The notes: generated by a model not told the origin, from the letters alone. A DNA stretch of 64,000 nt from Patescibacteria group bacterium (GCA_013387215.1 WARW01000003.1:10227-74226), one strand, 5' to 3'; counted from the first letter of the stretch, positions 14,998 to 58,552 are shown. Translations and numbers: made by a program.

Positions 14998-15014
14998 AGT
15001 TGATTGTACCCTAT

Positions 15015-15470: not shown

Positions 15471-15489
15471 AATAGTATATTTTAACTTA

Positions 15490-18582: not shown

Positions 18583-18584
18583 AT

Positions 18585-18803: not shown

Positions 18804-18811
18804 GTTGGTTT

Positions 18812-20694: not shown

Positions 20695-20708
20695 ACTACG
20701 TAGTGTAG
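20695..20708. promoter_or_regulatory. Candidate operator, core ACTACGTAGTGTAG, directly 5' of the start codon of the HMA/cupredoxin gene
   Basis: A near-identical 14-nt core recurs at 21987..22000. It lies in the 23-nt gap between the BlaR1-like stop and the next start. Confidence 0.4.
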
Positions 20709-20717
20709 TAGATGTTT

Positions 20718-21626: not shown

Positions 21627-21984
21627 TATTTTTCAAATATTCTTTTAATAACTCAATATCATTTTTATTGTTTTTAATAGTATCGACAAATTGGGAAATA
21701 GCCAACTTACCATATGAACCGACCAAATTGCCGTAAATTCCAGACAGATTAGATTCGATAAACTGATCTTTATTTAAAATGGGAGTATAAAAATAAACTT
21801 TACCTTCTAGTTTTCTTTTGACTATTTTTTTATCTGACATTCGCTTGAGAACAGTCATAATTGTGGTGTAGGCCTGATCCCCTTTTAGACTCACTAGAAC
21901 TTCGGCAGGTTTTAAAGGACGGTTGGACTGCCAAAGGATATCCATTATCTTCTGTTCTAATTCACCAAGCATTTGGGTTTTCAT
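21619..21984 (-). CDS. BlaI/MecI/CopY-family winged-helix transcriptional repressor
   Basis: 121 aa with a penicillinase-repressor-type N-terminal HTH (QKIMDILWQSNRPLKPAEVLVSL...TIMTVLKRM). Confidence 0.75.
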   Translation of the reverse strand: MKTQMLGELEQKIMDILWQSNRPLKPAEVLVSLKGDQAYTTIMTVLKRMSDKKIVKRKLEGKVYFYTPILNKDQFIESNLSGIYGNLVGSYGKLAISQFVDTIKNNKNDIELLKEYLKNND

Positions 21985-23420: not shown

Positions 23421-23493
23421 ATCAAGTAAATCAAATTATATAAATGATATAAGTGTTATATTAAATTTATCTTTTAAAAGCAATAGACCGTAA

Positions 23494-25023: not shown

Positions 25024-25068
25024 TAGGTGGTATATTAAACTGATAATTAAAAGTAATAGGCTGTTTTA

Positions 25069-26613: not shown

Positions 26614-26654
26614 TTAGGTTAATATATAAATAATATATTGAATAAATAAATTAC

Positions 26655-28196: not shown

Positions 28197-28209
28197 ATAA
28201 ATTTGAAAG

Positions 28210-31292: not shown

Positions 31293-31298
31293 AAACAG

Positions 31299-42896: not shown

Positions 42897-43847
42897 TTAA
42901 AATAAACTGGTTTGGTTGGGGTCTTCATTTTTTTTGCTTGGTTTGACAATATTATTGTTTTTTTCAAGACGTGCAATTAATGATTTAAAATTATAAGACT
43001 TAAAAACAGCAATTAAGTTTTGCACACAAGTATCACACCATTTAGCATCTGATAATTTAAACTTAAGTGGAATATTATAAACCAAAGTAGCTAGTTTTTG
43101 CGAAAGGTAGGCGTTTTCTTTACCAGAAATTAATTTTTCTTTAAGGCTTGGCTTAATGTTGTCTATATTTTTATAAATATTATCGAGATTTTGATATTCG
43201 GTCAGAAGATCAATAGCAGCTTTAGGGCCGATTCCAGCAACACCTGGATAATTATCCGACATATCACCCATTAAGGCTTTAAGATCAACAACTTGAGTCG
43301 GAAGCACTCCAAGTTTTTCTTTGACTCCTTCGGAATTGATGGTTTTTGTTTCCGAAAGACCACGAATAGGCATAAACAATTCAACTTTTGGCCCAACTAA
43401 CTGCATAATATCTTTATCGCCAGTAATAATGGTGACATTGTCAATAATTCTTTTTTTAGCACCAGTTTGGCTGACTTTTATTTTATTTAAGGCTTTTTTA
43501 GTAATGGTGGCAATTAAATCATCGGCTTCAAAACCACCAATGGCAAAATTAGGGATTTTGGCCTCCTCAAGACTTGATTGAAGCTTCGGAAATTGGCTGA
43601 TCAAATCCATGTCGGCAGGTTTACGTTTCGCACGATAACCAATAAATTCCTCATTGCGAAAATTAGGACCAGGCGAATCGAGACAAACAATTAAATAGTC
43701 CGGTTTTAAGGTGTTAACTGCTGTTAAGATCATGGAATAAAATCCATATAAAGCATTAACCGGCTCGCCGTTTACAGTTAAGGGCGGAATAGAATGATAG
43801 GCACGATGGATGATTGCATGACCATCAACAATGATAAGTTTGGACAT
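42897..43847 (-). CDS. Standalone 5'-3' exonuclease (Pol I N-terminal domain / FEN-like)
   Basis: MSKLIIVDGHAIIHRAYHS N-terminus, acidic metal-binding residues, and an H3TH region (GIGPKAAIDLL). Confidence 0.8.
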   Translation of the reverse strand: MSKLIIVDGHAIIHRAYHSIPPLTVNGEPVNALYGFYSMILTAVNTLKPDYLIVCLDSPGPNFRNEEFIGYRAKRKPADMDLISQFPKLQSSLEEAKIPNFAIGGFEADDLIATITKKALNKIKVSQTGAKKRIIDNVTIITGDKDIMQLVGPKVELFMPIRGLSETKTINSEGVKEKLGVLPTQVVDLKALMGDMSDNYPGVAGIGPKAAIDLLTEYQNLDNIYKNIDNIKPSLKEKLISGKENAYLSQKLATLVYNIPLKFKLSDAKWCDTCVQNLIAVFKSYNFKSLIARLEKNNNIVKPSKKNEDPNQTSLF

Positions 43848-43876
43848 AAGTTAGTTTAGCAGGTAAAATTTAGGTA

Positions 43877-44782
43877 ATGGAACAACACGCGATTCCACAG
43901 CAGATTTCGTCCTACGAATTTAAATTAGTGGGAGAAATGACGCTAAAACAGTTTATTAAGGCAGCGGCGGGAATTATCCTGGCACTATTAATTAACGCAA
44001 CCAAATTAATTATTATTGTTAAGTGGCCTTTAATGGCAGTTTGCGCTGGAGGCGGATTACTTTTAGCTTTTGTTCCTTTTGAAGACAGACCGCTGGAAAC
44101 CTGGGCAGTAGCTTTTATTAAATCGATTTATTCCCCGACTGTTTATATTTATAAAAAAAGAGCAAGTAAAAATTGGCTAGAAATTGATTTGAATAATATT
44201 ACAGATACAGATGGTGCTGAAACAAACGATGACGAAGAAGTACTAGTGGTTAAAGATAAAACTAAAGTAAGAGAATTTATTCAATCACTGCCTTCAGTTA
44301 AAAGAGAAGTAAAAGAAGAAGTTGAAGAAGTAAAAGAAGTGAAAAAAGTACAAGTACCAGTGAGCAATCCTCAAGTGCAAACCCAAACAGAGGTGGTTAA
44401 AAATATACAAAAGACTGAGGATTGGCATGATCAAAAAACTAATTTGAATTTAAAAACCGAAAAACTCGAAGCGACAGGAAAGGCAAATTTTGGAGCAATA
44501 CCAATGCCTGATATTCCAGAAGTTCCAAATATAGTGGTAGGAATGGCGATGGATAGCAATGGTAAAATTGTGGACGGAGTGATTATTGAAATCCAAGATG
44601 AACATGGTAATCCTTCAAGAGTATTAAAAACCAATTCTTTAGGACAATTTAAAACTTCAACTCCATTAGCTAATGGAAGATATTTATTAGTTTGTGAAAA
44701 AGAAAATTTCAGTTTTGATAGGGTCAATATTGATGTTAAGGGTGAGATTATTAAACCGATAAGGATTATTGCCAATAATTAA
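43877..44782 (+). CDS. T4SS/conjugation-associated membrane protein with a C-terminal beta-sandwich (CarboxypepD_reg-like) domain
   Basis: 2-3 TM helices near the N-terminus, a KE-rich linker, and a C-terminal GKIVDGVIIEIQDEHGNPSRVLKTNSLGQFK fold-like segment. Lies directly upstream of the VirB4 gene. Confidence 0.35.
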   Translation: MEQHAIPQQISSYEFKLVGEMTLKQFIKAAAGIILALLINATKLIIIVKWPLMAVCAGGGLLLAFVPFEDRPLETWAVAFIKSIYSPTVYIYKKRASKNWLEIDLNNITDTDGAETNDDEEVLVVKDKTKVREFIQSLPSVKREVKEEVEEVKEVKKVQVPVSNPQVQTQTEVVKNIQKTEDWHDQKTNLNLKTEKLEATGKANFGAIPMPDIPEVPNIVVGMAMDSNGKIVDGVIIEIQDEHGNPSRVLKTNSLGQFKTSTPLANGRYLLVCEKENFSFDRVNIDVKGEIIKPIRIIANN

Positions 44783-44816
44783 TATATGATTAAAATATTA
44801 GTTATAAAAAAATAGT

Positions 44817-45524
44817 ATGGCTACCGATCCACTTAAAATTGCCATTAAAGGTACAACTCAAGACCATTTGCCCATCGAAGATGTGGTTGATGGAGTGGTG
44901 ATTTTGAAAGACGGATCATGTGCGATGGTAATGCAGATATCTTCCGTCAATTTTGATTTGTTATCAGAAAAGGAACAATCGGCTTTGGTTTTTGCTTATG
45001 GCGGAATTTTAAATTCTTTGAACTTTCCAATTCAAATAATTATCAGATCAAACGCTAAAGATGTGTCGGTTTATCTTAATAATTTGAAAGACGCCGAAGA
45101 AAAACAAAGCAATTCTCTTTTGAAACAAAGAATTCAACTATACCGAAAGTTTGTTGAAGAAACGGTTAAAAAAAATGATGTGTTATCAAAATCTTTTTAT
45201 GTGGTGGCTCATTTTTCTGCGTTGGAACTGGGAATAAAAAATGCCGGCAAGCAAACATTGAGCACTATTCTGCCTCCTTTAGGAAAATCGCGTTCAACAG
45301 AATTACCATTTTCCAAAGATTATATTCTAGATAAAGCAAAAGCTAGTTTGGAACCGAAAAGAGATCATTTAATGAGATTGTTTTCCCGATTAGGATTGGA
45401 AATTAAACAATTAAACACCAAAGAATTAATCGAACTGTATTATAAAATTTATAATGAAGAAACGGCTGTAAATCAGAAACTGCAAACACTGAATTACAAT
45501 GCACCAATTGTTACCACTAAATAA
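44817..45524 (+). CDS. Hypothetical protein in the T4SS cluster
   Basis: 235-aa ORF immediately upstream of the VirB4-like ATPase. No clear motif. Confidence 0.4.
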   Translation: MATDPLKIAIKGTTQDHLPIEDVVDGVVILKDGSCAMVMQISSVNFDLLSEKEQSALVFAYGGILNSLNFPIQIIIRSNAKDVSVYLNNLKDAEEKQSNSLLKQRIQLYRKFVEETVKKNDVLSKSFYVVAHFSALELGIKNAGKQTLSTILPPLGKSRSTELPFSKDYILDKAKASLEPKRDHLMRLFSRLGLEIKQLNTKELIELYYKIYNEETAVNQKLQTLNYNAPIVTTK

Positions 45525-45525
45525 A

Positions 45526-48213
45526 ATGAGTATTTTAGATAAATTAATTAAAAAACCGGCAGCTGCACCAAGTACTACTCCAAGTACAACCCAAACTGAT
45601 CCCGTTGAAGAGACCAAACCTTTTACTGAAGGATTAGTGTCGACAAAAGATATTATTGCCCCATCTGCCTTAGAAGTTGATTTTAATCATTTAAGAATTG
45701 ATAATAAATATTACCGAACTTTGTTTGTGGCTGGATATCCAAGATTTGTGGGTATTAATTGGTTGTCGTCTTTGATTAACTTTGATGCTTCTTTGAATAT
45801 TGCTATGTATGTTTATCCAACAGACGGCAAGGCAATTTTGGATGATTTGAGGCGAAAAGTAACGGAAATGGAGGCAGAAATCAGCACTGACATTCAAAGA
45901 GGTAGAGTGGTTAATCCAGCAACACAGGCTAAACTTGAAGATGCATTAAATTTGCAAGCAGATTTAGTAAAAGGTGAAGAAAGATTTTTTCAATTTGGAC
46001 TTTATATTACGATTACTTCAGATTCAAAAGAAGAATTAAACAGAATCAATAAAAATTTGGAAGCAGCTTTGGGATCACTTTTAATTGTGAGCAAAAAAGC
46101 TACTTTGCAAATGGAAGAAGGATTTGTGACCACTCTCCCCGCTTGCGACGATAAACTGCAAATTACCCGAAACATGGATACGACTTCACTAGCCACTACT
46201 TTTCCATTTGTGTCTTCTGATTTATCAGATGATAAAGGAATAATGTATGGAATTAATGCCCACAACGGGTCTTTAGTTATCTTCGACCGATTCTCGATGC
46301 AAAACTACAATTCAGTAGTATTTGCAACTGCCGGTGCCGGAAAGTCTTACATGATAAAACTTGAGGCATTAAGATCTTTAATGCTTGGTTCAGAAATAAT
46401 TGTAATTGATCCAGAAAACGAATATAGAGATTTGTGTGAAGCAGTTGGCGGACAATATATTGCCTTTGGATATGGTGAAGTTTCAAAAATTAATCCTTTT
46501 GATTTATCTTTGGTAGAAGAAGATGGTGAAAATGCTTTAAACAGCAAAGTTTTAAGTCTTCATAAACTTTTCAAAGTGATGATTGGAGCTATGGATCCAA
46601 TTGAAGAATCTATCCTAGATAAGGCAATTATGGAAGCTTATAAAGCTAAGGGAGTGACACCAGATCCAGAAACACAAAAGAGAGAACCCCCGTTGATTGA
46701 AGATTTATATAAAGCATTAATCGGGATGGAAGAACAAAAAGCCCAAAGTTTGGCTGCCCGATTTGAAAAATTTATTAAAGGTTCGTTTGCTGGAATATTT
46801 AATCAAAAGACAACAGTTAATTTGACTAATCCGTTTGTGGTTTTTGGAATTAAAAATCTTGAAGATGCTTTAAGACCAGTAGCTATGCAAATTATTTTGG
46901 ATTACATTTGGACAGTAGTTAAAGCAACTTTAAAAAGAAGAATCTTAGTGGTCGATGAAGCTTGGTATTTGATGCAATATGATGATTCAGCAGAGTTTTT
47001 AAGAGGAATAGTAAAAAGAGGCCGAAAATATTATTTAGGAGTAACAACAATTACCCAAGATGTGGATGATTTTTTGAAAACTAGTTATGGAAAGGAAATT
47101 GTGACTAACAGTGCTATCCAAATTCTTTTAAAACAACATAGTGCGGCAATTGATCAAATCGGTGAAGTTTTTTATTTATCGGAAGGAGAAAAACAATTAT
47201 TATTAAGCGCAGATAAAGGTGAAGGAATATTTTTTGCCGGTCAAAATCATGTGGCTATTCGAGTTATCTCTTCCGATGACGAACATCAATTAATTACTTC
47301 CAACCCAGAAGAGGTTTTAAAAATTAAAAAAACCCAAGCACAAGCTCAAGATTTACCCAAGCCTCCAGTGTTTCCTCCAATAAAAGAAAGTCCTGTGGTT
47401 AATGCTCAGCCAATCAATAATCCAACTCCGATAAATAAACCAATAATTGAAACTAAACCGGAAATTCCTATGACTCCTCCAACATTAGTTGTTGAAAAGG
47501 TAGTGGAAATTAAAATGCCAGAAATTAAGACTCAAGAGACAAATAATGTCAATCCAAGCCCGGTAATAAATAATCCGACACCAGTAAGTCCAACTGTTTT
47601 ACAAACTCCAGCAAGCAATTCTGGGAATCGACCAGAAGTGGTAGTTTTAGATTTACAACAAAGAATTAATGAACTTGAGGAAAAAGAAAAAATAGAATTA
47701 AAAGAACATCAAGAAAAAGAAGAACAAATTAAGCAGGCAAACCAAACACCGGTGTTTACAAAAGAAGGTGAATTGCCAAAGTATCAAGATATATTTAAAA
47801 CACCAAATCCAGTTCAAACAAACCAACTTCCTCCTCTGCCAAAATTAGACCAACCAGTAAATAATAATGTGATTTTAAAAACGGAAACAATTGGAAACTC
47901 AACAAATAATTCTCAATCAAATAATTTGGAAAACAAAAAACCAATCTTTTTGAATCAAGTTGAACAAAAAATTCCGCAGCCACCACAACTGGCCAAAAAA
48001 ATTGTGCCAGAATTTGTGGCGCCAACTCAAAAAACTCCAAGCCAATCTCCTACTCCGACAAGTGAAATAAAACTGCCACCAGTAAAAGCAGCTTCGATTA
48101 ATCCAATACAAACTCCGATTGCAAAAGTAGAAACTCCTAGCACTAATACAGACAAACCTAAAGAAGAGAAAAAACTGAATTATGATGATATTTTTGGTGA
48201 CGGGATTGTGTAA
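45526..48213 (+). CDS. VirB4/TrbE/ConE-family conjugation ATPase with a roughly 300-aa Pro/Thr/Gln/Asn-rich disordered C-terminal tail
   Basis: Walker A FATAGAGKSY, Walker B ILVVDEAWYL, VirB4-like N-terminal domain (YRTLFVAGYPRFVGINWLSSL). Low-complexity tail from about aa 610. Start chosen at the Met just after the upstream stop. Confidence 0.8.
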   Translation: MSILDKLIKKPAAAPSTTPSTTQTDPVEETKPFTEGLVSTKDIIAPSALEVDFNHLRIDNKYYRTLFVAGYPRFVGINWLSSLINFDASLNIAMYVYPTDGKAILDDLRRKVTEMEAEISTDIQRGRVVNPATQAKLEDALNLQADLVKGEERFFQFGLYITITSDSKEELNRINKNLEAALGSLLIVSKKATLQMEEGFVTTLPACDDKLQITRNMDTTSLATTFPFVSSDLSDDKGIMYGINAHNGSLVIFDRFSMQNYNSVVFATAGAGKSYMIKLEALRSLMLGSEIIVIDPENEYRDLCEAVGGQYIAFGYGEVSKINPFDLSLVEEDGENALNSKVLSLHKLFKVMIGAMDPIEESILDKAIMEAYKAKGVTPDPETQKREPPLIEDLYKALIGMEEQKAQSLAARFEKFIKGSFAGIFNQKTTVNLTNPFVVFGIKNLEDALRPVAMQIILDYIWTVVKATLKRRILVVDEAWYLMQYDDSAEFLRGIVKRGRKYYLGVTTITQDVDDFLKTSYGKEIVTNSAIQILLKQHSAAIDQIGEVFYLSEGEKQLLLSADKGEGIFFAGQNHVAIRVISSDDEHQLITSNPEEVLKIKKTQAQAQDLPKPPVFPPIKESPVVNAQPINNPTPINKPIIETKPEIPMTPPTLVVEKVVEIKMPEIKTQETNNVNPSPVINNPTPVSPTVLQTPASNSGNRPEVVVLDLQQRINELEEKEKIELKEHQEKEEQIKQANQTPVFTKEGELPKYQDIFKTPNPVQTNQLPPLPKLDQPVNNNVILKTETIGNSTNNSQSNNLENKKPIFLNQVEQKIPQPPQLAKKIVPEFVAPTQKTPSQSPTPTSEIKLPPVKAASINPIQTPIAKVETPSTNTDKPKEEKKLNYDDIFGDGIV

Positions 48214-48316
48214 GTTTTAGGTCTGAATGATTGATATAATTTGTATAAACAGTGCCTTGTTAATATCTAACACTGTTTTTTACGCTTTTGTAAATTTTAT
48301 TTATATCTTGTAATAA

Positions 48317-51300
48317 ATGCCAGATCTAGCGACTGCTCAGAAAAATCCGATTGAGAAAAAAATAGACTACTTAAATGCGAGTGAAATTTCGACTCCTGAA
48401 GAAGCTATTGAGGTATTAAGAGAACTAAGAAATATTGGTGGAAAATTAATTAAAGGAAGTGTTCTTGAAAAAAGTATTGAGAATTATTTAGGCGAACTTG
48501 AGGTTTATGATGTGCCAAGCGTTATTGAAGCATTGAAAGACTTTGAGACAAAGACGGATGATAATTTTGATAAAGCGGCAGTTCCAGTCGCAAAAATTGA
48601 TGAATTAGTAGACGAATATGAAGAATATCTAGAAAAAGGATTTGACAGTGAAGAGGCTGCAGATAAAATTTATAAAGAAAATAAGGGATTAATTTCAAGA
48701 AAAACTATTGATAGTTTTGTTCAAAGACAACGAGAAATTTTTGAAAACAATTTAAAGAAAGTAAATGAAACTAAAAAACCTTTAACTCAGGAAAAATTAA
48801 TCGATTTAAATAAATACCGACAAGAAAGTGAAGCGACAACTCAAAACATAAAGACAGGTTTTAATGAAAAAGATAATAATTCCGAAAATAATGTAATTGA
48901 TTTAGGGAAATATAAGCAAAATACGATTGATGATTTTTATGATTTAAAACCAGACGTAAAAGAAAATAAAAAATATGATTTAAAACCAGAAAATAAAGCG
49001 AAAAAAGTTATTGATTTGGACTCATATATTCAAGGAAAAGAAGAGGTTGAAGATATAACTACTAATACTGATGCAGGAAAATATGAATCAAATAAAAATA
49101 AAGTAGAAGAACAAGTTGAAATAATCAGTAAAGAACAATTTAAATTTGAGAATAAAGTTGAAGAAGAATTATTAAAGTATCAAAAACAAGACATAAAATC
49201 AGACAGCAGTGTTGATGAAAAAGTAAAAGAAGAATTAAAAAAAGTATCAAGAGATATTTCAAAACAAACATTCGAATCTGTAGTTTTAAACGAAAAAGAT
49301 GTGGATATAGAAACAGTTGATAGAGTTGTAGAAAAGATAAGCGATGAATTGCCTTACTCCATAATTAAACCAGAAGAAAAAGAAACATTTAAAGCTAATT
49401 TAAAAGAAGAAATTGAAGTCGTTACCGCTAATATTGCCGTTGAAGCAAAAACTGAGGAAATTAGCCAGAAAATAATTTTAGAATTAAAGAAAGACGAAAG
49501 AACCGAGGAATTAATTAAGAGAAACAGCGACGTTGTTGAAAATAAAATCGAGACAGCAGTTAAGAATGTAATTTTAGGCGAAGAGGTTGTTACTAAAACA
49601 GAGCAAATAAATGACTTAAATTCCGAAATTATTAGGATTCTAAAAGAAGAAGATGTGAGCGACTTTAAACACGAAGCTCCAGTAAATAAAACCGCCATAA
49701 AAACAATCGATTTAGAATTAAATAAATGGGTAGAAACAAATAGAGAAACGGTTCAAGATTTTAGAGGCGATCATCTTGAAAAAATAATTGATCTTCAAAT
49801 CCAAAAAGAAAATCCATATTTAAGCGAAGAACAAAAAGTCCAAGTCCAAAAATATAAACAATTAATCAGAGAAATATATTATTCCGACAGCACACTTGAA
49901 AAATATAAAAATGATGCCGTAAATAATGCCTCTAAAACTAATAGTCCAGGACAAATAAATCAAGCTTGGACCGATTTAAAAGGAATAACAAATTTACTTA
50001 AAAAAAAGCCTGGGGATGTTAAAGATATTTTTAAAAGATATGATGACATTAAAAAGGGACTTGGCAATATTAATTTACCTTTTGATATTAAAGAATGCCG
50101 ATCTTTTGAGAATATTGCAAATGTTTTAACTAATCCCCAAATTAACGTTTTATTTGGAAAAGCGCAAAAATACATTACTTATCTAGAAAAATTAGATAGC
50201 TTTTCAGGAGGACTTTTGGGAAAAGCCGGAATGAAGGGGGCTAATTATATTATAGAGAGAATTGGCAACCAGGCAGTAAAGGCTTTTGCAGAAAATTCAT
50301 TAAAAATAATTGCAGAAAAAGGTTTACAGGAAGGTTTTGGAATTGTATTGAGAGGAATTTTAAGTGGTGGTGTGCAAGCTGGTGCTAGCGCAGCCGCCAG
50401 CGGAGCTGCAGTAGCAGGTGGAGCAGCGGCAACAGGAGTAGCAGTAGTCGGAGGGGCGGCTTTATCAGCAACAGGAGTTGGAGCAATTGTAGTAGCGGCA
50501 GCGACAGTTTTAGGAGTAGTAAAAAAAGTTGTTAATAAAATAAAAGATGGGATTTTAAAATCTTTAGGGATTGAGTCTGGTTTATTTGGAGCTAAACAGT
50601 TTTTTCAGGATAATTTTGGTAAAGGTTTAGGTGGAATATTAGGTAAAGGAGTAGAGTTAGTAGAATTATTAGTAGTAGGAACCATTGCTTTGGTTGCAGC
50701 TGTTTCAGCAGCAGCAGTCGGCCCAATAATAATTGCCTTTTTTGTGGGATTATTTGGATATCAAATGCTTCAAGGACACACTGTTTCCAGTTTAGTTCCA
50801 CCAACCACACTCCAAGACAGCACAGATATAAATGAGGAAGGCGGACAAGTTTTTGATCCAGGCAGTGTTCATAGTTTAAATTTAAGTTTTAATGTGCCAG
50901 TGGTAGGCGCTGAGTTTACTCGAGCGGATTTAGTGAATGTGGCCCAATCATTATTGGGATTACCTTATTTTTGGGGCGGAAAATATCCTCATAAAGGAGC
51001 AAACCCTAGCTGGGGGCAATTAAAAACAGTAACTGCTGATAAGAGTTGGTCAACCGGACTCCAAATTCCATCAGGATTAGATTGTTCTGGATTCGTTGAT
51101 TGGGCTTATTTTCAATTAACAGGCAGACAAATTTCAAACGGCGGCGGATCGGCAGATATCTGCAATTTAGCGGCACCAGTGGCTAGAGCAAGCTTAAAAG
51201 CTGGAGATGTGGGTTGTATGGATGGCCATGTAGCATTGTGTATTGGAACTGATCCGACAGATGGAGAGCCATTATTTATCCAAGCTGTTGGTCAAAGATA

Positions 51301-51430
51301 TAGAGATAATTCAAAAGGGTTGGTGGCTGGTCAAGTTTTGATATTAAAAGAAGGGATAGAATATAATGGTTATGTAGGACCTACTTTTACTAGTTACGGA
51401 CGACCAAATGTTACTTTTAAGGATAATTGA
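48317..51430 (+). CDS. Giant T4SS-associated cell-wall hydrolase (CwlT/PrgK-like): charged repetitive N-terminal region, Gly/Ala-rich TM segments, C-terminal NlpC/P60 peptidase domain
   Basis: C-terminal GLDCSGFVDWAYFQ...GDVGCMDGHVALCIG gives the NlpC/P60 Cys...His arrangement. Gly/Ala-rich hydrophobic block at about aa 620-790. Internal repeats (VIDLGKYKQ / VIDLDSYIQ; YDLKPD / YDLKPE). Confidence 0.7.
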   Translation: MPDLATAQKNPIEKKIDYLNASEISTPEEAIEVLRELRNIGGKLIKGSVLEKSIENYLGELEVYDVPSVIEALKDFETKTDDNFDKAAVPVAKIDELVDEYEEYLEKGFDSEEAADKIYKENKGLISRKTIDSFVQRQREIFENNLKKVNETKKPLTQEKLIDLNKYRQESEATTQNIKTGFNEKDNNSENNVIDLGKYKQNTIDDFYDLKPDVKENKKYDLKPENKAKKVIDLDSYIQGKEEVEDITTNTDAGKYESNKNKVEEQVEIISKEQFKFENKVEEELLKYQKQDIKSDSSVDEKVKEELKKVSRDISKQTFESVVLNEKDVDIETVDRVVEKISDELPYSIIKPEEKETFKANLKEEIEVVTANIAVEAKTEEISQKIILELKKDERTEELIKRNSDVVENKIETAVKNVILGEEVVTKTEQINDLNSEIIRILKEEDVSDFKHEAPVNKTAIKTIDLELNKWVETNRETVQDFRGDHLEKIIDLQIQKENPYLSEEQKVQVQKYKQLIREIYYSDSTLEKYKNDAVNNASKTNSPGQINQAWTDLKGITNLLKKKPGDVKDIFKRYDDIKKGLGNINLPFDIKECRSFENIANVLTNPQINVLFGKAQKYITYLEKLDSFSGGLLGKAGMKGANYIIERIGNQAVKAFAENSLKIIAEKGLQEGFGIVLRGILSGGVQAGASAAASGAAVAGGAAATGVAVVGGAALSATGVGAIVVAAATVLGVVKKVVNKIKDGILKSLGIESGLFGAKQFFQDNFGKGLGGILGKGVELVELLVVGTIALVAAVSAAAVGPIIIAFFVGLFGYQMLQGHTVSSLVPPTTLQDSTDINEEGGQVFDPGSVHSLNLSFNVPVVGAEFTRADLVNVAQSLLGLPYFWGGKYPHKGANPSWGQLKTVTADKSWSTGLQIPSGLDCSGFVDWAYFQLTGRQISNGGGSADICNLAAPVARASLKAGDVGCMDGHVALCIGTDPTDGEPLFIQAVGQRYRDNSKGLVAGQVLILKEGIEYNGYVGPTFTSYGRPNVTFKDN

Positions 51431-51869
51431 TCAAATAATTGAATTTGTTAAAAAGCATAAAATAATTTCTGGAATTTTGGGAGTTTTACTATTTTTTTTA
51501 TTACTCCAATTAAACAACCCTAAAACCCAAACAAAAACCAAAACTGAAAATCAAAATAAAATTGATCAAAATAATAGTTCAGAAACAGTTAATTTAAAAG
51601 ACCACCTTCTCCCCACTTTATCAACTGCAAAAACAACCCCTGAGCCATTTGATATTACCAACAGTGATCCCCAATATCCTTTAGAACAATTTTTGCCATA
51701 TGAAGGTAAAGGATTTACGGTGGAAAAATATTTAGCGCCATTAGTATTGGAAGTGAAGGTAAAAAATAAAGCTGATATTTCAAATATTGAACCGTTATTA
51801 AAAGCATGGTTAAAAGATAAAGAGCTAATTAAGGGCGAAAATAAAATCACTTGGAAATACGGTGAATAG
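51408..51869 (+). CDS. Small secreted/membrane-anchored protein
   Basis: N-terminal TM/signal segment. Overlaps the preceding gene by 23 nt. Confidence 0.45.
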   Translation: MLLLRIIDQIIEFVKKHKIISGILGVLLFFLLLQLNNPKTQTKTKTENQNKIDQNNSSETVNLKDHLLPTLSTAKTTPEPFDITNSDPQYPLEQFLPYEGKGFTVEKYLAPLVLEVKVKNKADISNIEPLLKAWLKDKELIKGENKITWKYGE

Positions 51870-51897
51870 TTTTTGGGAAATATAATATAATTTTAAT

Positions 51898-52326
51898 ATG
51901 AATCTTTTTCAGTTCGTAAAGAAATATCAATTGATTTTAATTTTAAGTTTTATAGCAATAAGTTTGTTTATAATTAAATCGGTTTACGGATATAAAGATT
52001 CTGGAGTGAAACCAGAAATTTCTATCTCGCCTACTCCATCGGCTTCAGCTGAAATTTCACCAACAAATATCCCAACAATTCCTGTTTCCAGCTCAAGTTC
52101 TAAATTAAAAACTTCTATTATTAAAGAAGTATCAAAAAGTGCAACAAATAAGTTAAAATTACCCTACTCTTCAAAAAATTTTATTGTTCAAGAATTTGAT
52201 TCGGTTAATACTTTTAAAGTAAAACTATTGAATCCTGATAAGGCAGTTGTTATACAGGAAATAATAAAATGGCTGGAGAAGAATGGATTAAATCCAGTAG
52301 ATTACCAAGTAGTTTTTGTTAATTAA
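51898..52326 (+). CDS. Small secreted/membrane-anchored protein
   Basis: N-terminal TM/signal segment followed by a Ser/Pro/Thr-rich linker. Confidence 0.45.
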   Translation: MNLFQFVKKYQLILILSFIAISLFIIKSVYGYKDSGVKPEISISPTPSASAEISPTNIPTIPVSSSSSKLKTSIIKEVSKSATNKLKLPYSSKNFIVQEFDSVNTFKVKLLNPDKAVVIQEIIKWLEKNGLNPVDYQVVFVN

Positions 52327-53441
52327 TCTTGCAAACGGACAGGCATGATGATGTGGGTGAATTGAGGATCAGATTGGTCATGAAAACAGCCAGGAGTTAA
52401 TGGTTCATTTAATTCAATTAAAATTTCTTGGCTTTTACAAACATTTAGGAAATCAGATAAGAATTTATAATTAAAAGCAATTTCTAAAGTTTCCCCTTCT
52501 ATCTTAGATTCAATTGAAGCTTTGTTTTGACCAACTTGAGGAGCATTGGCGGTAATATCGATGGAATTAGTTTTAATATTTAATTTAATAACATTAGCTG
52601 ATTCTTTAGCAAAAACTGAAGCAATTTTGACTGCTTGAGTAAATTCATCTTTATTTAAAAATAATTTAGTAGTGAAAGATTCAGGAATAATTCTTTTATA
52701 TTCCGGATAATCCCCTTCAATAAGACGGGAAACCAACTCTACGTCGTCTAGAACGAATACAACTTGGTGACCATCAGGTGTTAGCCCTATTTTTATTTTC
52801 TTGGCGTTTTTAGCAAGTTTAGTGACTTCGATTAAACTTTTTGCCGGAATTAAGAAAGTAATTTGGTCAGAATTTAAATTTATTGGATTGACGAGTTTAA
52901 TACTTTTAAAAGAAAGTCTAAAACCATCGGTGGCAGCTAAGGTTAAATTATCTTCAGAAAATTGACAAAGAATAGCAGTTAAAGCTGGTCGAGTGTCATC
53001 GGTGGCAGCGGCAAAGGCTAGTTGGGTAATAGCTTGATTTAAAATAGACAAATCGATTTCAAAGGAAGTGTTTGGATCGATACTTGGAAATTCAGGAAAA
53101 TCAGCAGCACTAACAGTGGTAAAACTTGATTCAGATTTAGCAGAAGAAAGAGTAAGTAAATTATTCTCATTTAAAGTGAGGTCGACTTTACCTGAGGAGA
53201 GATAAGAAACAAATTCTGTAATCTCTTTGGCTGGGATAGTTATACTTCCCTCTTCTTCAATTTTGGCACCAATCCAATAATTAATACTCAACTCTAAATT
53301 AGTAGCTGAGAGTTTAAGACGACCATTATCAGTAGATAAGAGAATGTTATTAAGAATAGGTAGTTGTGACTTAGAAGAAACGAACCGAGACACATTACTT
53401 AGGGCAGTTGTAAGATTCTCTTGTAGAAGGGAAAGCTTCAT
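52323..53441 (-). CDS. dnaN: DNA polymerase III beta sliding clamp
   Basis: 372 aa with a three-domain clamp pattern, positioned next to dnaA. Confidence 0.85.
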   Translation of the reverse strand: MKLSLLQENLTTALSNVSRFVSSKSQLPILNNILLSTDNGRLKLSATNLELSINYWIGAKIEEEGSITIPAKEITEFVSYLSSGKVDLTLNENNLLTLSSAKSESSFTTVSAADFPEFPSIDPNTSFEIDLSILNQAITQLAFAAATDDTRPALTAILCQFSEDNLTLAATDGFRLSFKSIKLVNPINLNSDQITFLIPAKSLIEVTKLAKNAKKIKIGLTPDGHQVVFVLDDVELVSRLIEGDYPEYKRIIPESFTTKLFLNKDEFTQAVKIASVFAKESANVIKLNIKTNSIDITANAPQVGQNKASIESKIEGETLEIAFNYKFLSDFLNVCKSQEILIELNEPLTPGCFHDQSDPQFTHIIMPVRLQD

Positions 53442-53701
53442 TGGCTTTATGTTATCAACAAATTAACAAAGTTTAAAGCTCTTAATAAAATTAAATATTT
53501 ATATCAAGAATAGTAGTAGGTATTAGTAGGGAGAGTGAATAAGTGGAGTATTTTTTAATTTGACCGAAAATTTGGCAATTTTTAAATAAAATAGTGGTGG
53601 AAAGTATTAAAATGGTTGTAGTAGTGGTGAAAAAAGATGTTTTTATCTTATAAGGTAAACTTGAGTTTGGGTAAGTTTCGGGGGAAAAGACAAAATTAAA
53701 A

Positions 53702-53743
53702 TGTGGATAAGTTTGTGGATAAGTGGAATCCAAGTGTGGAAAA
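53702..53743. promoter_or_regulatory. Cluster of three DnaA boxes (TGTGGATAA x2, TGTGGAAAA) in the dnaA-dnaN intergenic region; oriC part II / dnaN regulatory region
   Basis: Seen directly. Two perfect reverse-complement TTATCCACA boxes at 53702-53710 and 53714-53722, and one 8/9 box at 53735-53743. Flanked by AT-rich sequence (53442-53700). Confidence 0.6.
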
Positions 53744-53755
53744 CTTCAGACAGGG

Positions 53756-55117
53756 TTAGAAAGCACTTTTAATTTGGTTGATAAGTTGTCTGAGTTGTGG
53801 ATTAGTGGAAAAATCAGTGCTGACTTTGTCACGGGCGTGCATAATACTGGTATGGTCGCGGCCACCAAGCAAATGCCCTACTTCTTCAAGGGGTAAATTT
53901 ATTTCTGTTAATAAAAGATAAGCAGTGATATGGCGGGCGGAAACTAATTCTTTTTTACGGCTTTTTCCGCAAAGATCACTAGTTTTTATATTAAAATGTT
54001 TAGCACAGATAGAAATTATATGGCGAGGAGAAACCTTTTCAGAGCTGACAGAAAAAATCGAACTAGAATTAGGATTAGTTTGAGGGTGTAAATAATTTTC
54101 AATAAAATCCACATCAATCATACTGACTCGTTGGGCCATGGATTGAACAACAACCTCTTGGAGTTTACCTTCAATTTCACGAATATTTGCAGGGATATTA
54201 TTAGCAAGAACTTGAACGGCTTCAGGAGTTATTTGAACGCCTTTTTCTTCGACTTTTTGATTAATAATAGCGACCCGCATTTCATAGTCAGGAAGCTGAA
54301 TATCGACGGTTAATCCCCCCATAAACCGGGAAACTAAACGATCTTCAAGGCGATCGATTTCACTAGGCTTGCGGTCGGAAGTTAAAATTACCTGTTTTCC
54401 GGCCATATGAAGAGCATTGAAAGTGTGGAAAAATTCTTCTTGAATATATTCTTTGCCAGCAATAAATTGAATATCATCAACTAAAATACAATCAAGTTTT
54501 CGATATTTATCTTTAAACTGATTCATGTTTTTAGATTTGAGAGCGCTTATCAGTTCATTACTAAAGGTTTCGGCGGGAAAATACTTAATTTTCATGTCAG
54601 GAGAATGCTTTAGAAGTTCATGGCCAATAGCCTGCATTAAATGGGTTTTACCAACACCGACTCCACCCCAAATAAAGAATGGGTTGTAAGAAAGACCAGG
54701 ATTTTTAACAATACCTTGAGCGGCAGCATAGGCAAAATTATTACTATTGCCGACAATTAAGGTTTCAAAAGTATATTTAGGATGAAGACAAGAGAAATCG
54801 ATAGTGTTTTTTTGAGGAGAAAAGGAGAAAAGCGGGGCGGAAGTGCTGTCTACTATAGAATCCCCTTTTGGGGCTTCCTGGATAATAAAATTTAAAACAT
54901 TACTGGATTTAGTTTGGTTATCAAGGGCACTTTTAAAAAGATCGTAATAGCGTTTATGATTAATATCAACTAAATAAGAATTAGGACAAGCAATAATAGC
55001 AATATTATTTTCAATACTGATTAATTGAGTTTTGGCAACAAAAGTTTGGAAGACAGCGGGAGCTAGAACTATTTTAAGTTCCTCTTGTGTGTTTTTCCAA
55101 ATTCTTATCAAATCCAT
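53756..55117 (-). CDS. dnaA: Chromosomal replication initiator DnaA
   Basis: AAA+ Walker A GGVGVGKTHL, Walker B ILVDDIQF, and a C-terminal DNA-binding domain (HTSIMHARDKV). Confidence 0.9.
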   Translation of the reverse strand: MDLIRIWKNTQEELKIVLAPAVFQTFVAKTQLISIENNIAIIACPNSYLVDINHKRYYDLFKSALDNQTKSSNVLNFIIQEAPKGDSIVDSTSAPLFSFSPQKNTIDFSCLHPKYTFETLIVGNSNNFAYAAAQGIVKNPGLSYNPFFIWGGVGVGKTHLMQAIGHELLKHSPDMKIKYFPAETFSNELISALKSKNMNQFKDKYRKLDCILVDDIQFIAGKEYIQEEFFHTFNALHMAGKQVILTSDRKPSEIDRLEDRLVSRFMGGLTVDIQLPDYEMRVAIINQKVEEKGVQITPEAVQVLANNIPANIREIEGKLQEVVVQSMAQRVSMIDVDFIENYLHPQTNPNSSSIFSVSSEKVSPRHIISICAKHFNIKTSDLCGKSRKKELVSARHITAYLLLTEINLPLEEVGHLLGGRDHTSIMHARDKVSTDFSTNPQLRQLINQIKSAF

Positions 55118-55323
55118 AATTATTTTTGTTTTATAAAGGCATTAATATGCCTATTTTTAGGCAGGAAATAAATTAACTTCGGGGCAGAGATTTAAGTTAT
55201 CCACATTATAATAAAGTAGTTTTCCACAAAAGAAAAGATGTCAGTTTAGGGATATTAAAGTCATTTTAATACAAATTCAGATTAATTACAAAAGTGGCGG
55301 TTGTTTATGATAAAATACTTTCT
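55118..55323. promoter_or_regulatory. oriC-like AT-rich region with DnaA boxes between dnaA and rpmH
   Basis: TTATCCACA at 55197-55205 and TTTTCCACA at 55220-55228, in an AT-rich context. Classic divergent rpmH | dnaA arrangement. Confidence 0.55.
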
Positions 55324-55461
55324 ATGTCTAAGCAAACTTTTCAACCAAAAACTAAAAAAAGAACCAGAGTTCACGGATTTTTAAAAAGAATGATGTCTCA
55401 TGACGGCCGAAACGTTTTAAAAAGAAGAAGAGCTAAAGGTAGAGCAAAACTAACGGTATAA
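55324..55461 (+). CDS. rpmH: 50S ribosomal protein L34
   Basis: Own translation: [45 protein letters not shown]. Under 60 aa, so absent from the ORF track. Confidence 0.9.
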
Positions 55462-55468
55462 TTAGTGA

Positions 55469-55810
55469 ATGCTAAAGAAAATTAACCGGATTAAAAGCAA
55501 AAAAGATTTCGGGGAGATTAAAAATCGAGGGGTAATGTATCATTCCCCTCTTTTTAGTTTTGTATATATAAAATCAGAATTAAACGATCTAACTCATACT
55601 CAATTCGGTTTTATAATTTCTAAAAAGATTTCCAAAAAAGCTGTAGATAGAAATAGAATTAAAAGATTATTATCCTCCAGCCTGCAAGATAACTTAGAAA
55701 AATTTAAAAATAATTTAAAGGGAGTATTTTTAGTAAAGAGAGTGATTTTAGAAAAAGACCAAACGGAAATTAATCAGGAAATTGAAAAACTAGCAGATAG
55801 AATACAATGA
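55469..55810 (+). CDS. rnpA: RNase P protein component
   Basis: 113-aa basic protein directly downstream of rpmH, with conserved ...KKAVDRNRIKRLL... Confidence 0.8.
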   Translation: MLKKINRIKSKKDFGEIKNRGVMYHSPLFSFVYIKSELNDLTHTQFGFIISKKISKKAVDRNRIKRLLSSSLQDNLEKFKNNLKGVFLVKRVILEKDQTEINQEIEKLADRIQ

Positions 55811-56010
55811 AAAAAATAGTTTTAAAAATACTTGTCTTTTATAAAAAATACCTGTCTTACGGGTATAATTGTAGATTTATCCCAACATGTTCGGAATATA
55901 CATATGAAGCCGTGGAAAAATATGGTGTAATTAAAGGAATGGGTTTAGGAATAAGAAGAATATTAAAATGTCACCCATGGGGTAAAAAAGGAATAGATTT
56001 GTTAAAATAG
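55807..56010 (+). CDS. yidD: Membrane protein insertion efficiency factor YidD
   Basis: YKKYLSYGYNCRFIPTCSEYTYEAVEKYG signature. ATGA overlap with rnpA. Confidence 0.85.
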   Translation: MKKIVLKILVFYKKYLSYGYNCRFIPTCSEYTYEAVEKYGVIKGMGLGIRRILKCHPWGKKGIDLLK

Positions 56011-56016
56011 TAACTT

Positions 56017-56796
56017 ATGAATATTTTTATTGCACCGTTTGTGAACGCCCTATTTGGAGCCTACTATTTAGTAGGAAACTTAGGTTGGGCAATTATTTTG
56101 GTAACCATTTTAATTAAATTAATTTTGATTCCATTGGTTATTCCCAGTTTAAAAACCGCTCAAAAACAACGATTATTACAGCCAAAATTAAGTAAATTAA
56201 AAGAAAAATACGGCAATGATAAACAAGCTATGGCTAAGGCGCAAATGGATTTGTATAAGCAGGAAGGAATCAATCCAATGGCCGGATGTTTGCCCCAAAT
56301 ACTTCAAATCGCCGTATTACTTTTATTCTTCTCTGCTTTCAATATGGTGACTCAATATTCTGAGGGTAAAGGCAGTATGGATAATATTAATAATAATTTA
56401 ATTCAGAATTTTAAGATCAATCATGATTTTAAATTTGATGTGAACTTTTTTGGTTCGAATTTAACTCAAGTGCCTTCAAAGATTTTTTCACAAGGAATTA
56501 GTTTGAGTTTAGTTTTACCTTTAATCCTTTTATTGGGATCAGGTTTATTGCAATTTTGGAGTGCTAAATTAATGATGCCAGCTCCAAAAGCTGATGAAAA
56601 AATTGCTAAAGCAACTGCTGATAAAGAGGATGATATGATGGCGGCAATGAGAACCCAATCAACCTATCTTATGCCTTTAATGACAATTATTATTGGCTGG
56701 AATTTTTCATTAGGTTTATTGCTGTATTGGTTTGTTAATTCAGCGGCAATGATCGGTCAACAATTAATCTTTAATAAATTTTCAAAAAATAAATAG
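56017..56796 (+). CDS. yidC: Membrane protein insertase YidC (short, monoderm-type)
   Basis: 259 aa, 5 TM helices, Oxa1/YidC core, no large periplasmic domain. Confidence 0.8.
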   Translation: MNIFIAPFVNALFGAYYLVGNLGWAIILVTILIKLILIPLVIPSLKTAQKQRLLQPKLSKLKEKYGNDKQAMAKAQMDLYKQEGINPMAGCLPQILQIAVLLLFFSAFNMVTQYSEGKGSMDNINNNLIQNFKINHDFKFDVNFFGSNLTQVPSKIFSQGISLSLVLPLILLLGSGLLQFWSAKLMMPAPKADEKIAKATADKEDDMMAAMRTQSTYLMPLMTIIIGWNFSLGLLLYWFVNSAAMIGQQLIFNKFSKNK

Positions 56797-56841
56797 TAAT
56801 ATTGGGGATTAAAACTCAATAATGCATGGTAAAATAGCCCT

Positions 56842-57312
56842 ATGGATAACAAAGAAAGAAATGAAAAAATCTTAAAGATCGCTTGTGATCTTTTGGAAAA
56901 AATGAATTTTGAAGTAGAAAAAGCCTTCGTTGAGGATGTGGAAGGAGAGGAAGATCAAGTTTGGGTGGGAGTAACTGTGAAAAATCCAGGCGGTTTGATT
57001 GGATTTAGAGGCCGAAATTTAGCATCAATTCAAATTTTAATGTCGATGATTGTTAAGACTCAAGTCGATGAAAAGATCAGAGTGCTTTTGGATGTAAATA
57101 ATTATCGCGGTGAACAAAAAGTCAGATTAGAAAATATGGTAAAAAGTTTAGCTGAAAAAGTAATCCAAACCGGAATACCTGTCAGTTTAACTAATATGAG
57201 TTCGTATGAAAGAAGAATTTGCCATATGGCAGCTTCAAATATTGAAGAAATAGTGTCGGAGTCTGAGGGTGAAGGTGAAGAAAGACACGTAGTAATAAAA
57301 CTAAAGGCATAA
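56842..57312 (+). CDS. jag: Jag/KhpB RNA-binding protein (KH + R3H)
   Basis: KH-like GGLIGFRGRNLASIQ and R3H YERRICHMAAS. Conserved position after yidC. Confidence 0.8.
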   Translation: MDNKERNEKILKIACDLLEKMNFEVEKAFVEDVEGEEDQVWVGVTVKNPGGLIGFRGRNLASIQILMSMIVKTQVDEKIRVLLDVNNYRGEQKVRLENMVKSLAEKVIQTGIPVSLTNMSSYERRICHMAASNIEEIVSESEGEGEERHVVIKLKA

Positions 57313-57334
57313 AATATTTATGCTAAGATAGGGC

Positions 57335-58552
57335 GTGGTTGAAATTCGGCAAAAAATAAGCAGTTGGCTGCTTTTCATATTTTTATTTTTAATTCCAACT
57401 CAATTAGGAAAACATTTTTGGCCGGATTGGAGTTATATTTTGGGAATCAGAATCGATTTTTTATCCCCTACTTTGTATTTTTTAGATTTAATTTGGATTG
57501 GATTATTTTTAATTAATTTCAGTTTTGAAAAAATTAAAAGAATTTTAAAATGGGAATATTTTTTATTGACCCTATTTGTGGGAATTAATCTATTAGTAGC
57601 GGAAAATAAGGGCGTGGCTGTTTACCGGTGGCTTATTATTTTACAAATTATTTGGACTATAAATTTTTTAAAAAGCCAAAAAAATGAAGTTAAAAAATAT
57701 CTTTTTAAAATTATTCCAGTTTGGATTATCGGTGAAAGTATTTTAGGTTTGAGCCAGATGGTTTCTGGTGGAAGTTTAGATGGTATTTGGTATTTTTTAG
57801 GAGAAAGAAATTTTAATATTAATACAGTTGGGATTGCCCAAATGTCAATATTTGGGAAAGGAATTTTGAGAGCTTATGGAACTTTTTCCCACCCAAATAG
57901 TCTAGCGGGATTTGTTTTGTTAAGTTTGGTTTTATGGATTAGATTTAAAAGCAAAATAAAAAATAAGGTGTGGTGGTGGACAGTTTGTTGGTTTGGAATT
58001 TTAGGAATTATTATTAGCGGCAGCCGATTAATATGGTTTTTAGCTTTGATTTTGGGATATTATTTTTGCTGGCAAAAGATAAAAAATAAAAAGAAAGCCG
58101 TTGGTATAACTTTAATAAGTTTAGGGGTTTTAATGATGCTAAGCGCTGTAATTATTAATAAATATCCTTTAAATAATTTGATTGGAGGCTGGGATAAAGA
58201 AAGTTTTAGTAAAAGATGGGATTTGAATGTGGCGGCTTTTAAAATGATTCGTGGTTCGTTGTGGACTGGAGAAGGATTAGGAAACTTTATTGTTGAATTA
58301 CCTAGGTACGAAAAGAACAATTCTTTGTTGCAGCCGGTTCATAATATTTTATTGTTGATAGTTAGTGAAACTGGACTCTTAGGTTTAGGACTTTTAGGAT
58401 TAAGCTTAATTAATTTTTATAAAAATAAAGTTGGGAAAATTTCCGATAAATTGATTTTAATTTTGATTTTAATAAGTGGAATGTGGGACCATTATTGGAT
58501 TACCCTGCCCCAAAATTGGTGGCTTTTAACCGTGGTGTTGGGAATAATATAA
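57335..58552 (+). CDS. O-antigen ligase/polymerase-like (Wzy_C) polytopic membrane protein
   Basis: About 10-12 TM helices with a larger extracytoplasmic loop containing a conserved-like GSRL...W segment. Adjacent to the flippase. Confidence 0.45.
   Translation: MVEIRQKISSWLLFIFLFLIPTQLGKHFWPDWSYILGIRIDFLSPTLYFLDLIWIGLFLINFSFEKIKRILKWEYFLLTLFVGINLLVAENKGVAVYRWLIILQIIWTINFLKSQKNEVKKYLFKIIPVWIIGESILGLSQMVSGGSLDGIWYFLGERNFNINTVGIAQMSIFGKGILRAYGTFSHPNSLAGFVLLSLVLWIRFKSKIKNKVWWWTVCWFGILGIIISGSRLIWFLALILGYYFCWQKIKNKKKAVGITLISLGVLMMLSAVIINKYPLNNLIGGWDKESFSKRWDLNVAAFKMIRGSLWTGEGLGNFIVELPRYEKNNSLLQPVHNILLLIVSETGLLGLGLLGLSLINFYKNKVGKISDKLILILILISGMWDHYWITLPQNWWLLTVVLGII

Follow-up and report, generated by a model that had tools for sequence, protein, structure and literature searches.

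A chromosomally fixed, putative type IV secretion gene cluster beside dnaN in a Shapirobacteria-like lineage, with a predicted membrane-anchored hydrolase of exchangeable ends

Six genes next to dnaN in a Patescibacteria group bacterium very probably encode, judging from their sequences, the core of the Patescibacteria clade's type IV secretion system (T4SS), in a Shapirobacteria-like (Microgenomatia) lineage. They occupy positions 43877–52326 of the DNA stretch analysed here (GCA_013387215.1 WARW01000003.1:10227-74226; 64,000 nt; GC content ~32%), hereafter called the “window”. The cluster bears the signature of core genes that are passed on vertically and kept by strong purifying selection, and it is not a mobile element. 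The system was already described in papers of 2023–2025, and its proximity to dnaA and dnaN and its missing relaxase were published in 2025; the window reveals no new kind of system, and sharpens the picture for Microgenomatia. Three points go beyond these papers. The VirB3-like protein is predicted to carry a transthyretin-like β-sandwich, the gene following virB4 appears to join a conserved membrane trunk to a hydrolase end that has been repeatedly swapped among the NlpC/P60, M23, CHAP, C39-like, and VanY classes, and the GC skew keeps its sign at dnaA, which leaves a location at the origin not fully secured. The motor module is fixed beside dnaN under very strong purifying selection, while domain exchange is concentrated in the hydrolase that faces the envelope. 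The Patescibacteria T4SS belongs to the small number of machines whose necessity for epibiotic life has been shown in these abundant and largely uncultured bacteria, and the relation of hydrolase class to host wall type offers a testable handle on host specificity.

The motor module

The six open reading frames (ORFs) are all co-oriented on the plus strand, intact, and packed in an operon-like manner, and they fill the interval exactly (Table 1), as expected from the original prediction of a Gram-positive-type, T4SS-like module at this place. The first three are assigned, from profile and structure matches, to the PrgI/VirB3-like, TrsD-like, and VirB4 proteins.

First, ORF1 matches the PrgI family PF12666 (E 1.1e-5; 26.3 bits), narrowly missing the gathering score of 27, and its C-terminus is CarboxypepD_reg-like (PF13620, E 4e-4). 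The PF12666 family is assigned in many ORF1 orthologues. In the AlphaFold2 (AF2) model, calculated with 48 sequences, helices 12–41, 46–65, and 73–85 form an N-terminal helical hairpin, followed by a disordered linker of ~120 residues and a β-sandwich at residues 210–300, which is modelled with a predicted local distance difference test score (pLDDT) above 90. A Foldseek search of the sandwich against the PDB returned transthyretin-like and CnaB domains (E ~1e-4).

Second, ORF2 matches the TrsD/TraD model NF041427 (E 3e-8, below the curated cutoff) and corresponds to the N-terminal part of the VirB4 models: it aligns with positions 103–232 of NF045975 (E 1.9e-9) and with positions 2–120 of NF045971 (E 2.8e-5). 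The ORF2 orthologues carry the TraC-like family PF26593, and those in the related contigs L001 and L003 are 88% and 71% identical to ORF2, respectively.

Third, ORF3 is assigned as a VirB4-like ATPase of the CD1110 family (NF045971, 386.7 bits; cutoff, 325 bits). Since it aligns only with positions 185–733 of the CD1110 profile, ORF3 would lack the N-domain, which ORF2 supplies. ORF3 also matches P-loop_TraG (PF19044, E 1e-30), and its best solved relative is the VirB4 C-terminal domain (4AG5, E 3e-49). The Walker A (ATAGAGKS) and Walker B (ILVVDE) motifs are both intact, in agreement with the VirB4/ConE-type ATPase proposed at first. The frame opens at 45499, and the database protein P0001 (895 aa) begins at 45526, one base past the ORF2 stop, which is probably the true start. 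Residues ~1–611 form the core, and residues 612–895 (47359–48213) form a 284-residue low-complexity tail rich in P, K, N, and E. Even where the ATPase core is more than 78% identical, the homologues span total lengths of 743 to 982 aa. VirB4 has more than 8000 homologues; the best 120 are 78–100% identical, and those of them with a taxonomic source name are all named as Candidatus Shapirobacteria, Woesebacteria, or Patescibacteria.

Table 1. Positions of the cluster genes and the adjoining replication genes in the window
Feature	Position	Strand	Basis
PrgI/VirB3-like membrane protein, ORF1, 301 aa	43877..44782	+	PF12666, PF13620, AF2, Foldseek
TrsD-like protein, ORF2, 235 aa	44817..45524	+	NF041427, NF045975, NF045971
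VirB4 ATPase, ORF3, 895 aa from the probable start	45526..48213	+	NF045971, PF19044, 4AG5
Predicted membrane-anchored peptidoglycan hydrolase, ORF4, 1037 aa	48317..51430	+	PF00877, PDB 6b8c, transmembrane windows
Small bitopic protein, ORF5, 153 aa	51408..51869	+	Transmembrane segment; no family match
Small bitopic protein, ORF6, 142 aa	51898..52326	+	Weak paralogue of ORF5
dnaN, convergent with the T4SS operon	52323..53441	-	PF00712, PF02767, PF02768
dnaA–dnaN intergenic region, AT-rich, candidate oriC half	53442..53755		DnaA boxes at 53702, 53714, 53735
dnaA	53756..55117	-	PF00308 (E 1e-66), PF08299
Region upstream of dnaA, candidate second oriC half	55118..55324		DnaA boxes at 55197, 55220

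Synteny, conservation, and mobility genes

We compared 79 loci from species-representative genomes. The PrgI and TrsD genes lie directly upstream of virB4 in all 69 loci with enough sequence, and dnaN lies downstream of virB4 in 46 of 47, convergent with the T4SS operon in 45 of 46. The gene order is identical in the four contigs L001–L004: 5′-3′ exonuclease, PrgI-like, TrsD-like, VirB4, hydrolase, and small transmembrane (TM) protein(s), continuing with dnaN, dnaA, (rpmH), rnpA, (yidD), yidC, and jag, where brackets mark genes called in only some of the contigs. Identity to the L001 and L003 orthologues is 88% and 83% for the VirB4 core; DnaA reaches 83% and 78%, and DnaN reaches 80% and 76%. 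VirB4 thus equals or exceeds DnaA and DnaN in conservation. In addition, the GC content (0.28–0.35) and the third-position GC content of the six genes fall within the range of the neighbouring genes.

Mobility genes and sites were sought throughout the 64 kb. A Pfam scan detected no relaxase, type IV coupling protein (T4CP), or integrase domain in any window ORF, in line with the original prediction, and no att-like repeats flank the cluster, where the direct repeats are of chance level and confined to low-complexity sequence. The Rfam and tRNA scans of the window were both empty, and the promoter and terminator scans yielded chance-level matches only.

These data bear on the question of whether the cluster is an integrative and conjugative element (ICE), or the decayed remnant of one, inserted beside dnaN, with its relaxase, coupling protein, and integrase lying outside the window or lost. 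The cluster genes are indeed homologous to the conjugation genes of the MPF_FATA class, the closest VirB4 from outside the candidate phyla radiation (CPR) comes from a plasmid collection, which was the only non-CPR collection searched, and the window covers only 64 kb. We nevertheless consider an ICE extremely unlikely and reject this identity, because the same position and flanks recur in 46 of the 47 species representatives, the conservation of VirB4 and TrsD equals that of DnaA and DnaN, the window holds no integrase, tRNA, att repeat, or compositional shift, and the six ORFs are intact with their catalytic motifs kept. Moreover, in a survey of 3035 Patescibacteria genomes (Quinonero-Coronel et al. 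2025, Microb Genom 11:001409; PMC12102498), a relaxase was found in only 103, near virB4 in only 15 cases, and the T4CP genes were distant. The original prediction had favoured a chromosomally fixed T4SS and had named a nearby relaxase, integrase, or att site as the mark of an ordinary ICE; the synteny, conservation, and composition, together with the absence of mobility genes and att repeats from the window, uphold the fixed system.

One Shapirobacteria-type locus of the comparison (L018, DATMWB010000023.1) and many records of the CAZ and CAY accession series are titled “Candidatus Methanoperedens sp.” or “uncultured Gammaproteobacteria”. Mis-binning or the use of placeholder names is the probable reason for these titles, although the contig of an episymbiont could also have ended up in one bin with its archaeal host.

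A conserved membrane trunk with exchanged hydrolase ends

The gene after virB4 encodes a protein of three parts. The N-terminal 560 residues of ORF4 are E/K-rich and of low complexity. They are followed by the trunk (residues ~560–845), which contains Ala/Gly-rich TM segments—about three to five hydrophobic segments in total, with TM-like segments at ~698–742 and ~774–819—and bears an SSLVPP motif after the last of them. Finally, residues ~860–1037 form a predicted NlpC/P60 domain: residues 882–978 match PF00877 with 24.7 bits (gathering score, 23), the PDB entry 6b8c is matched with an E value of 2e-5, and Cys923 and His971 are invariant in 15 orthologues, with Q, H, or E as the third residue. 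No muramidase, SLT, or other glycosidase family was matched in ORF4 by Pfam at E ≤ 0.01. The “CwlT-like” hydrolase of the original prediction is thus retained for its NlpC/P60 domain and loses the muramidase/SLT part, and the polytopic trunk is specific to the lineage.

The segment between virB4 and dnaN is hypervariable among the relatives, ranging from 0.7 to 6.8 kb, and nearly always contains one large multi-TM protein (490–1230 aa) and small ORFs that are mostly bitopic. Both virB4 and dnaN were located in 53 loci, and in 49 of these virB4 is followed by a trunk-anchored hydrolase; a phmmer search with window residues 560–845 detected a homologous trunk in 40 of 50 positional orthologues. 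A full HMMER search of 1.84 billion representatives yielded only 117 trunk-bearing clusters.

The end attached to this trunk varies among the species. Pfam assigned the C-terminal domains of the 50 orthologues to Peptidase_M23 (14), NlpC/P60 (10), Peptidase_C39_2 (6), VanY (4), CHAP (2), and Exo_endo_phos (1). Seeded jackhmmer searches, applied to 49 of the 50 orthologues from GTDB loci plus the window protein, gave 17 P60, 14 M23, 7 CHAP, 7 C39-like, and 4 VanY ends, with one left without a class. Similarly, the 105 trunk representatives at 50% identity, classed by jackhmmer seeded with Pfam-verified exemplars, comprise 32 P60, 32 M23, 20 C39-like (C39_2), 9 VanY, and 8 CHAP ends. On the VirB4 neighbour-joining tree, at least 13 changes of hydrolase class are required. 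The pair L050 and L051 illustrates such a change among close relatives: their VirB4 cores share 98.6% amino-acid identity (~83% nucleotide identity), while their hydrolases (L050, 11533–15003; L051, 11769–15200) are 35% identical and end in a C39-like and an M23 domain, respectively. The published survey mentions neither NlpC/P60 nor CHAP nor the trunk–hydrolase architecture, and reports Peptidase_M23 only as an extra domain in some VirB1 homologues (PMC12102498).

The C-terminus of the L076 orthologue has no PDB match, and the single Exo_endo_phos protein matches the endonuclease/exonuclease/phosphatase family PF03372 with an E value of 1e-6.

What would such a protein do? The VirB1-like enzymes of Gram-positive conjugation—PrgK, TraG, CwlT, and Orf14—use the same kinds of hydrolase classes, and by this analogy the role of ORF4 as a functional VirB1 counterpart is well founded. 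That close relatives so often differ by exchange of the hydrolase speaks for adaptation to some factor that is not the same in every species, for which the host wall would be the obvious candidate. The trunk may stand in for VirB6; it has no Pfam match that would tie it to VirB6, TrbL, or PrgH, and a 20-sequence trunk profile found no match among the PDB sequences.

In two loci, L012 and L014 (virB4 at 9001–~11400, dnaN ending at ~11425), virB4 abuts dnaN, and the hydrolase and small genes do not lie between them. These parts are therefore not strictly required in cis.

Small bitopic proteins

The original prediction also listed small membrane proteins, and ORF5 and ORF6 answer this description, each with one N-terminal TM segment (residues 17–38 in ORF5). 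In ORF5, the TM segment is followed by a low-complexity linker and a C-terminal domain of ~60 residues. Neither protein matches a Pfam or NCBIfam family; they are weak paralogues of each other (E 0.002), a homologue search with ORF5 returned only ORF5 itself, and its single-sequence AF2 model has low confidence (pLDDT 55). At the same position, the relatives have between one and four small ORFs (≥60 aa), which for the most part carry a single TM segment near the N-terminus. No Pfam family was matched by the accessory proteins of these relatives, whether mid-size or small.

Neither a pilin nor VirB8 is evident here. The single TM segment of ORF5 and ORF6 is unlike the two-helix pilin pattern, and the general Pfam scan, which was not complemented by a pilin-specific hidden Markov model search, found no pilin among the window ORFs. 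The ~60-residue C-terminal domain seems short for the NTF2-like fold of VirB8.

Several relatives have, as their final small gene ahead of dnaN, one for a ~90-aa lipoprotein whose lipobox reads L-x-G-C, at L006:16323-16607, L016:15997-16272, L031:15980-16243, and L071:15185-15454. ORF5 and ORF6 of the window have no lipobox.

The replication genes and the origin question

How close is the cluster to the replication origin? The original prediction placed it flush against dnaN and oriC. For dnaN this is accurate: the end of ORF6 and the dnaN stop share 4 nt, tail to tail. For oriC, the evidence consists of gene order and DnaA boxes. The dnaN–dnaA and rpmH–rnpA–yidC order, which continues past dnaA as rpmH, rnpA, yidD, yidC, and jag, is that of a classical origin neighbourhood, and the window has four perfect TTATCCACA DnaA boxes, all but one of which flank dnaA (53702, 53714, and 55197), joined by one-mismatch boxes at 53735 and 55220.

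The GC skew does not add to this evidence. The third-codon-position skew measured on the plus strand is +0.17 for plus-strand genes and +0.274 for minus-strand genes, and the skew is positive on both sides of dnaA throughout the 64 kb, notably within 43000–58000, with no sign change at dnaA. Among 24 related loci (drawn from L001, L003, and L007–L077), the skew to the left of the T4SS genes is positive in 21, and to the right of dnaA it rises with unchanged sign; the textbook flip at dnaA occurs only in the three most distant loci (L058, L060, and L077). An origin beside the T4SS cluster is thus plausible, but it is not secured. The skew pattern could reflect asymmetric or unidirectional replication, or an origin elsewhere. 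If the plus strand is the leading strand on both sides, then the T4SS operon is co-oriented with the replication forks, rather than head-on.

This point touches the published survey, in which dnaN, dnaA, rnpA, and rpmH are abundant near virB4 in Paceibacteria and Microgenomatia and a possible gene-dosage effect is suggested (PMC12102498). The dosage argument for a virB4 near the origin does not use GC skew (PMC12102498).

Two further gene groups lie at a distance from the cluster. At 22032–32831, eight sulfatase (PF00884) paralogues of ~460–520 aa each stand in tandem, the first on the minus strand and the other seven on the plus strand, followed by a PMT_2 glycosyltransferase; the first two genes were scanned, and the other six were assigned from their size and position. 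At 14449–21984, a metal-handling island encodes a CopA-like P-type ATPase with an HMA domain, cupredoxin proteins, a DsbD_2–HMA–cupredoxin fusion, and a pair consisting of a BlaI/BlaR1-like repressor and sensor-protease.

Proposed mechanism and function

Assembly: The cluster would represent the core of a Patescibacteria-clade T4SS that descended from the conjugation machinery of monoderms (MPF_FATA) and has become a fixed chromosomal trait. The PrgI (VirB3-like) protein is predicted to reside in the membrane, where it would anchor the motor, as VirB3–VirB4 biology suggests. The motor would be composed of the TrsD-like N-domain protein and the VirB4 ATPase core. The anchored endopeptidase, whose domain is recognised in ORF4, may open the peptidoglycan where the machine is assembled or where it touches the host, and the bitopic proteins (and lipoproteins) could serve as envelope scaffold or accessory parts.

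Site of action: In Southlakia epibionticum, the T4SS (SEML1_0006-0019) is unusual, resembles Gram-positive conjugative systems, and has no recognisable relaxase or coupling protein (Wang et al. 2023, Cell; PMC10633639). Transposon sequencing showed it to be essential for epibiotic growth (PMC10633639), and comEC is dispensable (PMC10633639, PMC12857230). A 2025 FEMS review (PMC12857230) and a 2024 PNAS perspective (PMC11665869) describe a new, essential, possibly pilus-forming T4SS, with its substrate unknown. Considering the essentiality in Southlakia and the lack of a relaxase or coupling ATPase at the present locus, the machine most likely acts, by analogy, at the symbiont–host contact, as a T4CP-independent conduit for macromolecules or as a pilus-assembly motor.

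Direction of transport: Wang et al. proposed protein export, on the ground that relaxase and coupling protein are absent (PMC10633639). Such effector export into or onto the host cell might even include the ORF4 hydrolase itself, whose hypervariable, domain-swapped C-terminus resembles the architecture of polymorphic effectors. However, most effector-translocating T4SSs need a T4CP, and none was found here; the internal TM segments of ORF4 are those usual in an anchored component of the machine, and not in an effector that is released, and no candidate pair of effector and immunity genes was seen. We therefore regard export as possible, with considerable doubt. Given that no T4CP is present at the locus, that these cells depend on external nucleotides, and that comEC is dispensable in Southlakia, we lean slightly, and with less than even confidence, toward the uptake of host material or the assembly of a contact structure.

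A narrower version of uptake is a machine dedicated to importing DNA (or RNA) as food for a cell auxotrophic for nucleotides, in the manner of Helicobacter ComB or the archaeal Ced system. The locus has no T4CP or relaxase, and the Ptl and Brucella VirB T4SSs work without a T4CP (PMC12857230). Nucleotide acquisition through the T4SS has been proposed, in view of the dispensable comEC (PMC11665869), and according to a 2026 preprint a cultivated member of the lineage feeds on host RNA, with tubes at the interface that may be T4SS pili. The window VirB4 weakly matches the DNA-import ATPase CedB (E 2e-15), but this match scores 56.5 bits where the cutoff is 700, and the CedD model scores 22 bits where 600 is required, which amounts to generic VirB4 similarity. 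The cluster contains no recognised DNA-binding or nuclease component. A dedicated nucleic acid importer thus seems unlikely to us.

The hypervariable, domain-swapped hydrolase end suggests that the protein acts on, or adapts to, different host walls. In its strongest form, this idea makes ORF4 a host-directed “drill” that tracks the peptidoglycan chemistry of the host, and the T4SS a feeding or contact conduit rather than a usual secretion system; we offer it as a speculation that is more probably wrong than right.

Several points weigh against our assignment of the cluster as a fixed T4SS acting at the host contact. The PrgI match lies just below the Pfam threshold. The channel is not accounted for, as no VirB6, VirB8, or VirB2 homologue and no T4CP was recognised in the window, and since the view is confined to 64 kb, a distant relaxase or T4CP could be encoded elsewhere in the genome. 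The ORF4 trunk bears no detectable likeness to any solved protein or to a neighbouring protein of the Firmicute cluster described below. L012 and L014 either encode the hydrolase and small genes at another place or can do without them. The hydrolase diversity could also mirror differences in the walls of the organisms themselves. Finally, the function and the transport direction are drawn by analogy with a different class, the Saccharimonadia.

Comparison with known systems

The closest VirB4 outside the CPR, found in a search covering one plasmid collection, is 37% identical and is encoded on the 898-kb replicon of Pontibacillus sp. ALD_SL1 (NZ_CP062975.1, 344328–370103), which PLSDB classes as non-mobilizable. 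The Pontibacillus cluster, which is T4SS-like, shares the local gene order: a small protein (116 aa), a TrsD-sized protein (274 aa), a split VirB4 (621 aa), and a peptidoglycan metalloendopeptidase (1050 aa). It differs in having an Mbov_0395 pilin-like gene and a 779-aa protein upstream and flagellar genes adjacent, and in not lying beside dnaN. By hhalign, the Shapirobacteria trunk has no detectable homology to the Pontibacillus hydrolase or to the neighbouring 779-aa membrane protein.

The staphylococcal TrsC-TrsD-TrsE-TrsG module of pGO1/pSK41 is a subclass of MPF_FATA, borne on plasmids together with a relaxase, an oriT, and a T4CP. Unlike ORF4, the hydrolase of this module is not known to combine a sole NlpC/P60 domain with a polytopic trunk. 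The present cluster shares with this module the split VirB4, the order VirB3-like, TrsD, VirB4, and the presence of a cell-wall hydrolase in the operon (PMC12102498).

The CD1110/CTn2 element, Tn916, and ICEBs1 (ConD, ConE, ConG, CwlT) form another group of relatives, and the CD1110 model is the best NCBIfam VirB4 model for ORF3. In the Tn916-type ICEs and ICEBs1, the NlpC/P60 hydrolases Orf14 and CwlT also lie downstream of VirB4. In contrast to the window cluster, in which none of these was found, the elements carry an integrase, a relaxase, a T4CP, and VirB6- and VirB8-like proteins, and CwlT has a muramidase domain, which was not found in ORF4.

The nearest likeness is within the Patescibacteria. 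The Southlakia locus also has peptidase genes directly downstream of virB4, and it differs in possessing a VirB2-like pilin array and a VirB6 homologue, neither of which is visible in the window. In the survey of Patescibacteria genomes, 2425 VirB4 proteins form a monophyletic Patescibacteria clade within MPF_FATA, the commonest partner of VirB4 is TrsD, and PrgI/VirB3 homologues are frequent (PMC12102498). For Microgenomatia, however, the survey located only 22.6% of the VirB3 homologues near virB4, with VirB6 scarce and VirB1 rarely adjacent (PMC12102498), while in the window group a PrgI-like gene lies upstream of virB4 in 69 of 69 loci and a hydrolase gene follows it in 49 of 53. The difference in the PrgI counts probably arises because the PrgI match sits at the detection threshold. 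In its other traits, the window cluster agrees with the clade: a VirB4 of MPF_FATA type with adjacent TrsD-like and PrgI/VirB3-like genes, no relaxase and no nearby T4CP, and a chromosomal, vertically inherited location near dnaA, dnaN, rnpA, and rpmH, as reported for Microgenomatia.

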